Positions 15,181 to 64,000 of a stretch of DNA of 64,000 bases are shown here, in pieces. The notes below the pieces were generated by a model. The model did not search any database and had not been told where the DNA came from. It was given only the letters and a program-made list of their open reading frames with translations. Position 1 is the first letter of the stretch. Every line of letters begins with the position of its first letter. This DNA comes from Peptococcaceae bacterium (GTDB taxonomy: Bacteria; Bacillota; Dehalobacteriia; UBA4068; UBA4997): NCBI GenBank assembly GCA_022797295.1, contig JAAWKH010000001.1, positions 186,060 to 250,059 on the forward strand, written 5' to 3'. The position numbers were made by a program, and so were the translations under genes.

Positions 15181-16023
15181 ATGTCTGTTAACGTGACGAT
15201 TAAATTGGCCGATCCGAAAAATGAATTGCAGATTAAAGATGTTCTTTTCAAAGGTATGCGTTATGGTATTATGGATGCTGCCTATAGATTGTCTGAAAAT
15301 GAAATTGGGGAAGTGATGGTTATTTTTAGTGAGGCCAATCTTTGCCGTGGATATGAGATTACATTGCCGCCAGGACAAATAGAGCTGCGCTTGCCAATTC
15401 CCACTAGCGATACGGATATTCGTTTTTTCTATAGTTTGGTGCAAAAGTTGTGCCAAAAGTTTGCAACAACTGATTTTTGGCGCGAGGATGAAAAGGGTAG
15501 CTTTGCGGAAATTCCTGATTATATTAAAGAGGATATTGGTTTAAGCGAGCGAACTTTGCTGATGATGGAGGAGGAAATTGATGCTGGCAAGTTTAATTCC
15601 TTGTATCTTTTTGGCGTTCTCAATCCGATTGCGATCAGCAAAAATGATTTACGGGAAATTGACGGCAGCTTGCAGAAACTGGCAGATTTTTTTCAACGGC
15701 ATCAAGCAATGGATGTTTACTATGCTAAACCTAGTGTTTACCAAAAAAATAACGAAAGCTTGTTTGGCGTGTATGTTCTGTCGGAAGATGTAGTGTCAGT
15801 TTTGCCTAATAAGCCTGGTTTGTTTATGGGACCTAAGGATATGCAGATAGCTGATTGGTATGTTGCCTTTGTTATCGATGATGATTTGGCTGGGACAATT
15901 TCCTATGCCGATTTTTTAGCCGACACTGAACCAAGCGCCGAATATGATGTTGAACATTTTATTATAAGTCTGAATAAAAGGCAGATGACCAAATTGCTGA
16001 GTTTTCATGCCGTACAGCCTTAA
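15181..16023 (+). CDS. hypothetical protein (280 aa, no domain recognised)
   Basis: Long ORF with its own terminator downstream. GGGAG lies 11 nt upstream of the ATG. Confidence 0.5.
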   Translation: MSVNVTIKLADPKNELQIKDVLFKGMRYGIMDAAYRLSENEIGEVMVIFSEANLCRGYEITLPPGQIELRLPIPTSDTDIRFFYSLVQKLCQKFATTDFWREDEKGSFAEIPDYIKEDIGLSERTLLMMEEEIDAGKFNSLYLFGVLNPIAISKNDLREIDGSLQKLADFFQRHQAMDVYYAKPSVYQKNNESLFGVYVLSEDVVSVLPNKPGLFMGPKDMQIADWYVAFVIDDDLAGTISYADFLADTEPSAEYDVEHFIISLNKRQMTKLLSFHAVQP

Positions 16024-16113: not shown

Positions 16114-16187
16114 GCGGGTGTAGTTTAATGGCAGAACAAGAGCTTCCCAAGCTTTTAGCGAGGGTTCGATTCCCTTCACCCGCTCCA
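16114..16187 (+). tRNA. tRNA-Gly (anticodon CCC)
   Basis: Cloverleaf folded by eye. Acceptor stem GCGGGTG/CACCCGC, anticodon loop TTCCCAA, T-loop GGTTCGATTCC, 3' CCA encoded. Confidence 0.85.
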
Positions 16188-25712: not shown

Positions 25713-25886
25713 ATGATGAAAATTACAGATGAATGTATTGCCTGCGGCACTTGCCAAGGGGTTTGCCCAGCTGAGGCTGTGGAAACTAATGACGCTGGCG
25801 ACGGCTTCAAAATTAATCCGGATCTTTGTCTGGAATGTGGCGCTTGCGCTGCTGCTTGCCCGGTTGGGGCCATTGTGGAAGAGTAA
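25713..25886 (+). CDS. ferredoxin, 2x[4Fe-4S] clostridial type (57 aa; absent from ORF track)
   Basis: MMKITDECIACGTCQGVCPAEAV...PDLCLECGACAAACPVGAIVEE with two CxxCxxCxxxCP motifs. GGAGG 8 nt upstream. Confidence 0.8.
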   Translation: MMKITDECIACGTCQGVCPAEAVETNDAGDGFKINPDLCLECGACAAACPVGAIVEE

Positions 25887-25962
25887 ACTTTGGCTCAATC
25901 AACCAGCCGCCAGCCTCAAAGGGCGCGACTGGTTGAAATGGTTCTCACTAAGCTTTGTCTGC

Positions 25963-25999
25963 GTCCACTAAAGTGGACTTGCCAATCGCTAAGTGTTCA
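25963..25999 (+). repeat. copy A of a repeated 3'-region element: small hairpin + TTGCCAATCGCTAAGTGTTCA
   Basis: GTCCAC-TAAA-GTGGAC hairpin followed by the 21-nt motif. A near-identical copy lies at 63966..63997. Confidence 0.6.
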
Positions 26000-26009
26000 C
26001 ACAAAACAT

Positions 26010-26044
26010 AAAACGGCTGCTTTTTGTTAGGCAGCCGTTTTTGT
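26010..26044 (+). terminator. rho-independent terminator after the ferredoxin gene
   Basis: AACGGCTGC-TTTTTGTTAG-GCAGCCGTT followed by TTTTG. Confidence 0.7.
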
Positions 26045-26158
26045 GTGAAAACATTCATTTAGCTTTAGGCAAATGGAATCTTTAATAAAATGGTTGTTTT
26101 GTAGGCAAAAGTATGATATAATAATAAGAATATTGGGATAATTTTTGGATGTGATTTT

Positions 26159-26917
26159 ATGGATTTGGCTTATATTAATGATTTTTCGGCCCGATTGGGT
26201 TTGCCGTTTGAACCGGAACTGGTGCCAAAGCATGTGGCGATTGTGATGGATGGCAATGGTCGTTGGGCCAAACAGCGCGGTCAGGAGCGTAATTTTGGTC
26301 ATCGACGCGGCGTGGAAGCATTGGAAAATGTGGTTATCGGTTGCCGCAAGCTGGGTGTGCGTTATCTGACGGTTTATGCTTTTTCTACTGAAAATTGGAG
26401 TCGTCCTAAAGCGGAAATTAGCATTTTAATGGGTTTGCTGAGCGAATTTGCAGATAAAAAGCTGGCTCGTTTGAAAGCTAATCAGGTGCGGGTTCAGGTA
26501 ATAGGTGATTTTGCTGGTTTGCCAATGCTGCAACGCCTGGCCTTGCGTCATTTGTTGGATGAAACAGCTAACGAGCAGGAGTTAGTCTTAAACTTAGCCT
26601 TAAATTATGGTGGTCGAGCGGATATTTTACAGGCTATTAAACAGGCTGCTTATCAGTTGCCGCCAGATAAGTTGCAAGCTATGACTGAAGCTGAATTTAA
26701 CGGTTTTTTGCAGACTGCCGGTCAACCCGACCCAGACTTGTTGATTAGAACCAGCGGCGAGTTGCGTTTGAGTAACTTTTTGCTGTGGCAGTTGGCTTAC
26801 GCAGAATTTTATTTTACAGATGTACTTTGGCCTGATTTTGATGAAGCAGAGCTATTCCGGGCCATCTGTGCCTATCAGAAACGTTCTCGGCGGTTTGGAG
26901 CTGTTGTGGAGGCTTAA
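26159..26917 (+). CDS. uppS: isoprenyl transferase (undecaprenyl diphosphate synthase)
   Basis: HVAIVMDGNGRWA, YLTVYAFSTENW and other UppS motifs. Confidence 0.9.
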   Translation: MDLAYINDFSARLGLPFEPELVPKHVAIVMDGNGRWAKQRGQERNFGHRRGVEALENVVIGCRKLGVRYLTVYAFSTENWSRPKAEISILMGLLSEFADKKLARLKANQVRVQVIGDFAGLPMLQRLALRHLLDETANEQELVLNLALNYGGRADILQAIKQAAYQLPPDKLQAMTEAEFNGFLQTAGQPDPDLLIRTSGELRLSNFLLWQLAYAEFYFTDVLWPDFDEAELFRAICAYQKRSRRFGAVVEA

Positions 26918-62572: not shown

Positions 62573-62827
62573 TGATATTTTCAAATATTGGTGCTATAAT
62601 GTTAGCAATAGCGGAATATAATATACTTGCCCGACAGTGTGCGAAGAGATGCTGATAAGTTTTGAGCCAACACTCAAAATATGGGATTCTTATATTTGTC
62701 TGTGGACTTAATGCCTCCATCGAGTGGACTAAGGAAGCAGCTTGCGGAAGCCCACCTGCATATGCAGGTTCAAAACATCGGCGTTGGACCGGCATTGTGG
62801 GGCATTTTTTTATTAGGAGGGGATTTT
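62573..62827 (+). promoter_or_regulatory. sigma-A promoter (TTGATA-16-TGcTATAAT) plus ~220-nt structured leader upstream of pyrF
   Basis: -35 at 62573-62578 and -10 at 62595-62600. The leader contains the palindrome CCTGCATATGCAGG (62755-62768) and a T7 run (62805-62811) directly before RBS AGGAGGGG. Confidence 0.5.
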
Positions 62828-63562
62828 GTGGCTTTAACACAACAAGAGGCTAAGGAAAAAATAATTGTGGCATTGGATGTGCCAAACCGAGAGCAGGCCT
62901 TACAGCTGGTGGAGCAGCTTTATGATGAAGTTGGCGCTTTCAAAATTGGTATGCAGTTATATAATGCTGAGGGGCCAAGTATTGTGAAGGAAATTCAGCG
63001 GCTTGGCGGCAAGGTGTTTATTGATTTGAAGCTGCATGACATACCAAACACTGTGGCCGAGGCTACCAAAGTGTTGACTAATTTGCAGGCTTTTATTATG
63101 ACTCTGCACGCAGGCGGCGGCAAAAAAATGCTGGCTGCGGCTGCCAAAGCGGTGGCGGAAAGTGTGCCGGAAAATGGCTGCAAACCGTTGGTGGTTGCGG
63201 TGACAGTTTTAACCAGTTTGAGTCAGCAGGAATTTACAGAAGAAATTGGTGTTGAGCGGTCGATTGCTGAACAGGTGGTTATTTGGGCAAAAATGGCCAA
63301 AGAAGCAGGTTTAGCTGGCGTTGTGGCTTCGCCGCAGGAAATTGAGGTTATCCGTCAGGCTTGCGGACCAGATTTTGTGATTATTACGCCGGGAATTAGG
63401 CCGCTTTGGGCCGCGGCAAATGACCAAAGCCGGATTATGACGCCAAAGCAGGCTGTGCAGGCAGGCGCAAATTACTTGGTGATTGGCCGGCCAATTACGG
63501 CGGATAAGGAGCCAAAGGCTGCTGCACGCCGTATTGTTGAGGAAATTATGGAGGTTCATTAA
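62828..63562 (+). CDS. pyrF: orotidine 5'-phosphate decarboxylase
   Basis: KIIVALDV, FKIGMQL, LKLHDIPNTV and VIGRPIT motifs. The in-frame ORF 62681 is trimmed to GTG 62828, 5 nt after AGGAGGGG. Confidence 0.85.
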   Translation: MALTQQEAKEKIIVALDVPNREQALQLVEQLYDEVGAFKIGMQLYNAEGPSIVKEIQRLGGKVFIDLKLHDIPNTVAEATKVLTNLQAFIMTLHAGGGKKMLAAAAKAVAESVPENGCKPLVVAVTVLTSLSQQEFTEEIGVERSIAEQVVIWAKMAKEAGLAGVVASPQEIEVIRQACGPDFVIITPGIRPLWAAANDQSRIMTPKQAVQAGANYLVIGRPITADKEPKAAARRIVEEIMEVH

Positions 63563-63564
63563 GC

Positions 63565-63951
63565 TTGAGCGATAAACAACAACTTTTATACTGTGCGGAC
63601 AAGGCCTTGTGTAGCTTGCAAAAAGCGCAAAAGAAATTATATAGCGCTCATAATATGGGTGTGTTTGATATTTGGGGAGGCGGTTTGCTGACCAGTATGG
63701 CTAAGCACGGTGATTTGAACGAAGCCAACTATTATCTGAAAGAAGCCAAACAAGATTTGGAAGTTTTGAAGGATCAGATGGGTGGGGTTGATTTGCAGAT
63801 TGATTTAGGCAGTGGATTGGAAGCTATTGATATTTGGCTTGACAACATATTTATAGATTTGACGGTTCAGGATAAAATCTGCGCTGCTCAGACGCAGGTT
63901 CATCAGGCTATTTCTCAGTTGCAAAGTATTATTGCAAAGCTTAAAGATTAG
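63565..63951 (+). CDS. hypothetical helical protein (128 aa)
   Basis: TTG start 10 nt after GGAGG. No domain recognised with confidence. Confidence 0.45.
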   Translation: MSDKQQLLYCADKALCSLQKAQKKLYSAHNMGVFDIWGGGLLTSMAKHGDLNEANYYLKEAKQDLEVLKDQMGGVDLQIDLGSGLEAIDIWLDNIFIDLTVQDKICAAQTQVHQAISQLQSIIAKLKD

Positions 63952-63965
63952 CTGTTAATATGCCG

Positions 63966-63997
63966 GCCTATCAGGCTTGCAAATCGCTAAGTGTTCA
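63966..63997 (+). repeat. copy B of the repeated 3'-region element: small hairpin + TTGCAAATCGCTAAGTGTTCA
   Basis: GCCT-ATC-AGGC hairpin followed by a motif 20/21 identical to 25979..25999. Cut by the window end. Confidence 0.6.
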
Positions 63998-64000
63998 TTA

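Follow-up and report, generated by a model that had tools for sequence, protein, structure and literature searches.

A hairpin-forming interspersed repeat beside intrinsic terminators in an uncultured gut Bacillota lineage

Introduction

BOX elements of Streptococcus pneumoniae have the modular composition boxA-boxB(n)-boxC (Croucher et al. 2011, PMC3049150). As in BOX, the elements described here are small modular interspersed repeats of a Firmicute in which an internal module occurs in strain-variable tandem number; in both cases stem-loops are predicted to form upon transcription, the copies are enriched downstream of coding sequences and lack an adjacent transposase, and genes that are co-transcribed with a copy may be affected. 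However, whereas the boxA and boxC ends pair with one another in the manner of terminal inverted repeats, the ends of the present element fold separately, and there is a fixed junction with the A-tract of a terminator. The likeness is architectural only, and no sequence relationship to the box consensus is apparent.

REP sequences are palindromes of 20–40 nt with an unpaired GTAG or CGTC tag (Di Nocera et al. 2013, PMC3733652). Similarities are noted between the present family and REP/BIME sequences and the RAYT-mobilised REPINs, all being extragenic imperfect palindromes found mostly downstream of genes or between convergent genes, in clusters or arrays, with a conserved stem mismatch and the possibility of forming hairpins in RNA. 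REPs are present in hundreds of copies, mainly in Proteobacteria, whereas the present family has a 58-nt core and about ten copies per genome, and its array units run head-to-tail instead of being inverted. The foot of the hairpin lacks a GTAG or CGTC tag, and no RAYT gene was seen in the flanks of 79 copies, taken to 2.5 kb.

The PATE elements derived from IS200/IS605 resemble the present family in having subterminal hairpins, neither inverted terminal repeats nor an obvious target duplication, insertion beside a short conserved flank, and an orientation bias, which in the present family is confounded with gene orientation. Unlike in PATE, the left and right hairpins are unrelated here, and the left one (P1) is interchangeable. 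No full-length cognate insertion sequence (tnpA/tnpB) was seen in about 8 kb around each copy. Terminal inverted repeats of the MITE kind are absent as well, the left end AATCAACCAG and the right end GTGTTCAYAC not being inverted copies of each other but belonging to separate local hairpins.

A strong tie to gene 3' ends and intrinsic terminators is a property that the family has in common with SPRITE, a pneumococcal repeat resembling a Rho-independent terminator, and with class C group II introns. Class C introns choose a "safe haven" at terminators, and the layout of gene, terminator and reverse-complement element that is typical of the present family mirrors that choice. The element is nevertheless no terminator itself (no U-tract follows the core), and inspection by eye revealed neither intron end sequences nor a hairpin like domain V. 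A group II intron fragment was rejected by eye, since the ends and P1 are unlike intron 5' ends or domain V. The family reported here is undescribed, while its kind, that of BOX, REP and PATE, is already known. The motif by which it was recognised was not found printed in the literature that was searched.

Results

The window, i.e., the whole 64,000-nt stretch of DNA that was analysed, contains two 21-mers, TTGCCAATCGCTAAGTGTTCA (copy A) and TTGCAAATCGCTAAGTGTTCA (copy B), which are identical at 20 of 21 positions (Table 1). They are the sole matches to each other in the window at up to three mismatches on either strand; no match occurred in dinucleotide-preserving shuffles of the window (0/100), and none is expected by chance. 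The pair was located correctly in the original prediction, which also described a small hairpin in front of each 21-mer (GTCCAC-TAAA-GTGGAC in copy A and GCCT-ATC-AGGC in copy B) and a plus-strand stop codon upstream of it. Both descriptions agree with our analysis, the stop codons being that of a 57-aa 4Fe-4S ferredoxin gene (fer; TAA, 25884-25886) for copy A and that of a 128-aa ORF (TAG, 63949-63951) for copy B. The terminator said to follow copy A was recovered by RNA folding as an intrinsic-terminator hairpin with a T-run and a stem at about 26013-26038, which a simple terminator scan overlooked because its loop is 9 nt long. Copy B is indeed cut by the window edge. Beyond the motif as it was first described, the similarity of copy A reaches about 80 nt further upstream, and copy B goes on as a tandem array.

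Table 1. Positions of the repeat copies, their parts and the adjoining terminator in the window
Feature	Position	Strand	Basis
Copy A, complete "type I" element (AATCAACCAG ... GTGTTCACAC): P1, spacer and core	25897..26002	+	Copy alignment, covariance model
P1, variable 5' hairpin (CAACCAGCCGC ... GCGACTGGTTG)	25900..25935	+	RNA fold
Core rod-like hairpin: P0 CACUAAGC/GCUAAGUG with invariant A.A mismatch, P3 UGUC/GCCA, P2 apical	25946..25995	+	Pairing counts against slid-partner controls
P2, apical hairpin GTCCAC-TAAA-GTGGAC	25963..25978	+	Fold; covariation across copies
21-mer of copy A: 3' strands of P3 and P0 plus UUCA tail of core	25979..25999	+	Motif search, covariance model
A-tract, intrinsic terminator hairpin and T-tract; insertion target/context, outside the repeat	26003..26049	+	RNA fold; same terminator in MGBC125362
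Inverted core-less "type II" remnant (P1 + GTTTTCACAC) on the far side of the copy A terminator	26043..26085	-	blastn, pattern search
Copy B: 5'-truncated first unit (P2 63966-63976, 21-mer 63977-63997) plus first 3 nt of next unit	63966..64000	+	Same-species contigs continuing the array

The 21-mer is one arm of a hairpin-forming repeat element of ~105 nt, which consists of the variable 5' hairpin P1 and a 58-nt rod-like core hairpin with helices P0, P3 and P2. A small intergenic repeat family had been among the candidates put forward for the motif, and this one proved right, as the 21-mer belongs to a multi-copy hairpin repeat; the small hairpin noted in front of it is a conserved structural part, the apical helix P2, in which compensatory changes occur. 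When the flanks of the copies are aligned, P1 is followed by the box (G)TTCACACTAAGCTCTGTCTGCG, the small variable hairpin P2 and the box CTTGCNAATCGCTAAGTGTTCAYAC, after which similarity ends abruptly. Compared with more than 20 other copies, copy A has sharp limits, starting at AATC and ending at GTGTTCAYAC, and a covariance model scores it at 75.8 bits over 25940-26002. The core is flanked by GUUCA and UUCAYAC tails. P1 forms a hairpin in most copies (mean MFE -15.8 kcal/mol vs -9.2 in shuffles) and is of at least six unrelated sequence types, the same position being filled by unrelated hairpins in other subfamilies. Units that are truncated at the 5' side and retain the exact 3' end were found at at least seven loci; a 9-mer probe for copies with the 5' half only was too noisy to give a count.

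On the far side of the copy A terminator, the inverted type II remnant is 95.8% identical to an array unit over 24 nt (blastn) and matches the pattern at 20/21 positions at 26063-26083 on the minus strand, where none is expected by chance. It is missing from the empty sites of relatives. No further copies were found in the 64,000-nt window, where the covariance model with its filters off returned only copy A and the edge of array B. A weak model match at 1129-1174 on the minus strand (11 bits, E = 1.7), which resembles the 5' box (GGTTCACGTTTAAGCTC) and lies inside a 460-aa ORF, was discarded as chance. A three-mismatch match to the 16-mer core at 15992-16007, just upstream of a tRNA-Gly(CCC) gene (16114-16187, plus strand), is likewise at chance level. 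A promoter reading of the motif (TTGCCA-17-...) was rejected for want of an acceptable -10 box, and parS, LexA-type or other dyad operators were rejected on the ground that the motif is non-palindromic in duplex DNA.

In the core, the two conserved boxes pair with each other to produce a rod, in which P3 has the general form UNNC/GNNA. For 20 hand-picked copies, 92% of the cells in the alignment are paired and six pairs have changed on both sides, compared with 22-39% pairing in slid-partner controls. In a set of 71 distinct copies, obtained after the metagenome scan and model search, 93.6% of the cells are paired (slid-partner controls again 22-39%), and double-sided changes are seen in 9 of 15 pairs (84 cells vs 25 in shuffles), although this alignment leans towards the proposed structure because it was fitted to the model. 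RNAalifold independently finds P0 and part of P2. P3 covaries between GC, UA, CG and AU and P2 between CG, UA and GC, and the sequence of P0 is nearly invariant. The compensatory substitutions across the aligned copies indicate that the core hairpin is under selection and kept by such changes. As RNA, the segment 25887-26052 folds into P1, core and terminator with z = -6.0. The strand on which folding takes place is not distinguished by the counts of G.U and A.C pairs; a raw asymmetry of 4 vs 18 arose from misaligned composite copies, and fell to about 3 vs 5 when these were left out. Because the motif is base-paired inside this hairpin, and no complementary partner is present within the window, the suggestion that it is the seed target of an sRNA was not borne out. 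The sole polymorphism inside copy A in ten strains, G25995T (L044 position 1783), breaks the outermost C-G pair of P0, and the covariance model gives the altered copy 67.4 bits in place of 75.8.

Locus A is fixed in all ten same-species contigs (10/10), with one SNP inside the element. Six related species with fer-uppS synteny were reached through UppS homologues (85, 80, 76, 72, 70 and 65% identity), and in all six the fer-uppS spacer has no element. The two closest relatives align cleanly around an insertion of ~112 nt, which is placed between the fer stop codon and A(A/C)AAAACATA with the terminator. MGBC125362, which has no element at locus A, keeps the homologous terminator ACGGCTGCC...GGCAGCCGT. 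The situation at the other locus is similar: in three relatives, whose 128-aa proteins are 65-72% identical, the spacer is 33 or 126 nt long and array B is missing, and those with the 126-nt spacer keep the terminator AAAAAGAGCTATCGCC...GGTGATAGCTCTTT. Conservation in related species, on which the original prediction was to be judged, is thus not seen at the orthologous fer-uppS (six relatives) and 128aa-MFS (three relatives) spacers. Because the terminators are kept where the element is missing, both window copies are evidently lineage-specific insertions, which went in directly 5' of the A-tract of an intrinsic terminator that was already there. Deletions in the relatives would in principle give the same picture, but would have to be independent precise losses at two loci in several lineages. 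Comparison of filled and empty sites indicates GTGTTCAYAC as the 3' end of the element, placed immediately 5' of the terminator A-tract. With regard to target-site duplication, some copies have ACAA or CAA on both sides, and the filled and empty sites are too diverged to give base-exact junctions. Two orthologous pairs in different species keep a copy, L010/L030 and L015/L011. In the latter pair, P1 type and terminator stem differ, and the 3' box of the core is the same except for the variable N position (C/T), which indicates that copies can persist and remodel.

For 60 distinct copies there was sufficient sequence downstream, and in 37 of these a stable hairpin comes within 16 nt or less of the copy, a class assigned by script that took in a few non-terminator hairpins and in which an A-tract with a hairpin (bidirectional intrinsic terminator) predominates by eye. 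The others are followed by the next array unit (4), lie in toxin-antitoxin-like leaders (8) or have other settings (11), such as that of a copy directly 5' of the ribosome-binding site of ssb. A copy also occupies the corresponding position in front of an ORF that we take, by eye, to be a phage tail-sheath gene. Of 25 callable rows in the first set of loci, about 17 have a convergent gene beyond the terminator; on the P1 side, about 13 of the neighbouring genes are co-directional with the copy and about 12 divergent from it. The GC skew of the element strand is negative in 34 of 45 loci (binomial p = 0.0008, some loci being orthologous duplicates), and the coding majority is opposite to the element strand in 32/45. 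This strand bias implies a typical layout of gene, terminator and reverse-complement element, for which the opposite-strand junction next to the T-tract reads ...TTTT directly followed by GTRTGAACAC.

The window copies, in sense orientation between stop codon and terminator, form a minority class, although array B conforms to the terminator rule when it is read from the convergent MFS transporter gene. It was proposed earlier that the motif is a protein-binding 3'-UTR element. The position of the two window copies agrees with this, but elsewhere the family is mostly antisense (32/45 loci), also occurs in 5' leaders, and is absent from orthologous 3' UTRs. A simple dispersed repeat had been named as the outcome that would speak against the motif; a dispersed repeat it is, but one with a marked context, its 3' end abutting a terminator. 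The neighbouring genes form no coherent class, and the copies do not lie in sense upstream of a coherent gene set, the arrangement of a riboswitch or cis-regulatory leader.

Further observations relate to the terminators and flanks at individual loci. In MGBC125362, the T-tract of the 6S RNA gene is followed at once by a diverged reverse-complement copy (L104 315-440, minus strand); this copy comprises a core scoring 51 bits, a type II P1 and a half-core remnant, and the window species has no copy at its 6S site. The terminators at L053, L062, L063, L072 and L100, which are beside copies or at an empty site, have in common a stem like GCGGCGTT...AACGCCGC, and may constitute a second, terminator-like repeat family (cf. 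pneumococcal SPRITE). The contig pairs L072/L084, L074/L088 and L061/L083 have the same flank on one side of a type I copy and different flanks on the other, which could be due to recombination between copies or to assembly chimeras at the repeat.

In same-species contigs, which were found via the 128-aa protein, copy B is seen to begin a head-to-tail array with a period of 89 nt. A truncated unit composed of P2 and the 21-mer comes first, and the array ends at a terminator shared with the convergent MFS gene. Between this gene and the 128-aa ORF, the spacer measures 196, 208, 285 or 476 nt across strains, equal to about 1.4, 2.4 and at least 3.4 units, where the last value is a lower bound because N runs mask part of the array in two public contigs. 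These runs are at L002 10636-10735 and at about L006 10402-10501. A CRISPR array was rejected, as the 89-nt units are contiguous and head-to-tail, and have no spacers. The repeated 3' half-cores of the 5'-truncated units are a likely substrate of array expansion, and growth may proceed by unequal recombination or slippage between them. The earlier proposal of recombination sites is unsupported as a dedicated function, although unit number does vary between strains and some metagenome contigs share one flank only. Array B could serve as a typing marker; the repeat also breaks MAG assemblies. A different array was observed in a GC-richer metagenomic organism (L090 7731-8026, minus strand), where five cores without P1 follow in tandem with a period of 58-59 nt. 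Two core variants alternate in it, resulting in a super-period of 117 nt, and the array is flanked by the start of a divergent gene and the end of a convergent one.

Outside the window, three MAGs have the module within convergent RNA pairs, each composed of an mRNA for a 24-27-aa peptide and an antisense RNA with a common bidirectional terminator. The peptides follow the pattern M..(R/K)(I/L)T(L/F).IG.F...IE......NR(H/R), and have no Pfam or NCBIfam match. In the peptide mRNA, the Shine-Dalgarno sequence is sequestered and the stop codon lies inside the bidirectional terminator, and the antisense RNA starts from a TTGACA-17-TATAAT promoter. The 24-27-aa ORFs are at L013 (-372), L014 (-7118), L026 (+1617), L031 (+141) and L034 (+1810). 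Judged from these features of the sequence, the loci look like an undescribed type I toxin-antitoxin family. The module is found in the toxin-like mRNA leader at L014, L016, L031 and L034, in the antisense RNA at L026 and in both RNAs at L013, so that it appears as an optional insert. In this respect the related MAGs resemble the repeat-embedded type I toxin-antitoxin loci LDR and QUAD/Sib of E. coli and par of Enterococcus. Unlike these systems, the window copies have no small ORF, and the module is optional and seemingly an insert instead of a working part. Neither the window nor the strain contigs contain a member of the 24-27-aa ORF family, and the window copies are not type I toxin-antitoxin loci. 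Nor does locus B have the composition of a type III system, in which a ToxI-like array is associated with a co-directional toxin; beyond array B come a terminator and the convergent MFS gene. The modular use in the toxin-antitoxin-like RNAs shows how repeats of this kind can be recruited into transcripts.

Multiple copies of the family are present in a clade of uncultured Bacillota. A scan with GCNAATCGCTAAGTGTTCA over one genome per species gave 4-9 exact-motif stretches in each of four species-level uncultured MAGs, many of them at contig ends, along with single chance matches in unrelated phyla. The four MAGs bear the label Peptococcaceae or Bacillota, and one of them comes from a mouse-gut catalogue. 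A metagenome scan added 45 loci. MGBC125362 carries the family at L011, L013, L026, L036 and L104. The family was not found in IMG/VR contigs, PLSDB plasmids or INPHARED phages, and a phage or plasmid origin was rejected on this basis. Within 2.5 kb of 79 copies there is no transposase, reverse transcriptase, other mobilising gene or recurrent protein family. Rfam 15 at gathering thresholds finds only 6S RNA and tRNA in the whole window, and only far-sub-threshold chance matches over 25850-26160 at E up to 10.

Discussion

We consider it probable that the motif belongs to a new family of interspersed repeats that are structured and modular, are of the BOX/REP/PATE kind and seek the flanks of terminators. 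The element would then be, or recently have been, a non-autonomous mobile element, and its core hairpin would be conserved through recognition by a trans-acting factor, most plausibly a mobilising enzyme that acts on single-stranded nucleic acid. Recognition by a mobilising factor is favoured because the boundaries are sharp and no promoter travels with the element, most copies are antisense, there is no tie to a gene class, the element is absent from orthologous sites, and 5' truncations occur. Against this reading, there is no mobilising gene near the copies, terminal inverted repeats are lacking, and copy numbers are modest; the invariance of P0 could also come from gene conversion among copies. 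Given the sense position between stop codon and terminator, the window copies should be co-transcribed as an extra 3'-UTR structure. They would at most modulate termination, or the stability of the 3' ends, in the transcripts of the ferredoxin gene and the 128-aa ORF, and they are best seen as 3'-UTR passengers and not as dedicated regulators of the two genes.

A less probable but credible alternative is that the module is a functional structured RNA (a protein-binding, processing/stability or sRNA domain), which works in cis on 3' ends or in sRNAs derived from 3' UTRs, and that its dispersal is secondary. For some copies a consensus sigma-70 promoter immediately precedes the module or a ribosome-binding site immediately follows it, so the module is certainly present in some RNAs, and an RNA function could conserve it. 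At L013 and L026, the TTGACA-17-TATAAT promoter puts P1 and the core at the 5' end of an antisense RNA; other copies are in the 5' UTR of the small toxin-like ORFs, or directly 5' of the ribosome-binding site of ssb and of the ORF classified by eye as phage tail-sheath. However, the promoter is not part of the element, since the similarity between copies begins exactly at the foot of P1, and most copies are antisense to local genes (32/45 by coding majority, 34/45 by GC skew). The hairpin covaries, the invariance of P0 and of the internal loops fits a recognition site, and a terminator immediately 3' is the usual design of an sRNA, but there is no recurrent gene class and no Rfam match. Likewise, locus A is unchanged in ten strains but for one SNP, whereas the unit number of array B is unconserved even within the species, and relatives that have kept the genes and terminators lack the element in the orthologous UTRs.

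A further proposal is that the element is a relic of a single-strand-DNA transposon (IS200/IS605-PATE or REP/RAYT type) and that an HUH (Y1) transposase mobilises it in trans, by recognition of its core hairpin on the lagging-strand template; in this specific form we regard the proposal as unlikely. HUH enzymes recognise hairpins with stem mismatches, and the conserved stem of the core has an invariant A.A mismatch. Hairpins at both ends, the lack of terminal inverted repeats and of a clear target duplication, and the fixed junction beside a T-tract are also in line with such a transposon. The two end hairpins are unrelated, however, and P1 is freely replaced, which is unlike a situation in which one transposase recognises both ends, and no Y1 or TnpB gene is located within 2.5 kb of any copy. 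The strand bias (negative GC skew at 34/45 loci, p = 0.0008) would suit the lagging-strand scheme, but GC skew is confounded with gene orientation in short loci, and the bias may just mean "downstream of a gene's terminator"; the asymmetry of wobble pairs gives no folding strand. The tag that defines REP, GTAG/CGTC, is absent (PMC3733652), and the copy number is far under that of a typical REP. An IS200/IS605- or REP-like single-strand-DNA route is possible, but its defining partners were not seen near the copies.

Equally doubtful is a mechanism outside the known MITE, REP and PATE systems, i.e., a structure-dependent mobile element of a new type, for which intrinsic terminators would be the homing sites and which would insert with fixed polarity at the A/T-tract, and whose module was perhaps co-opted as an RNA domain in the small-ORF/antisense family. 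Room for a single-stranded or an RNA-mediated (SINE-like) route is given by 3' ends that stay intact while the 5' truncation varies, by a target rich in A, and by the absence of inverted repeats and of a linked transposase. A duplex-DNA protein-binding or site-specific recombination site (an operator, or dif/att-like) that occurs twice by happenstance is highly improbable, since conservation tracks the pairing in the hairpin with compensatory changes and thus single-stranded folding, the motif has no dyad in duplex DNA and no linked recombinase or regulator, and the points that would agree with it are the invariance of P0 and the one-sided flank sharing of L072/L084, L074/L088 and L061/L083, which is explicable by assembly chimeras or ordinary homologous recombination at repeats.

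Under the preferred reading as a terminator-flank-seeking interspersed repeat, the family offers a clean case of a structured repeat whose preference for the flanks of terminators is precise, in a gut lineage of uncultured Bacillota. Few elements are known to use terminators as safe insertion sites, and the family would join them if the mobilisation route were worked out. For annotation, the motif should be treated as a mark of insertion, and not as a regulatory signal common to the ferredoxin and pyrF-region operons. In the latter region, a 6S (SsrS) RNA gene (62626-62807, plus strand; Rfam 87 bits) is located directly upstream of pyrF. The mechanically called 293-aa pyrF ORF (62681-63562) overlaps the 6S RNA gene, which implies that the true pyrF start is later; the pyrF gene calls in the strain contigs are 245-289 aa long.
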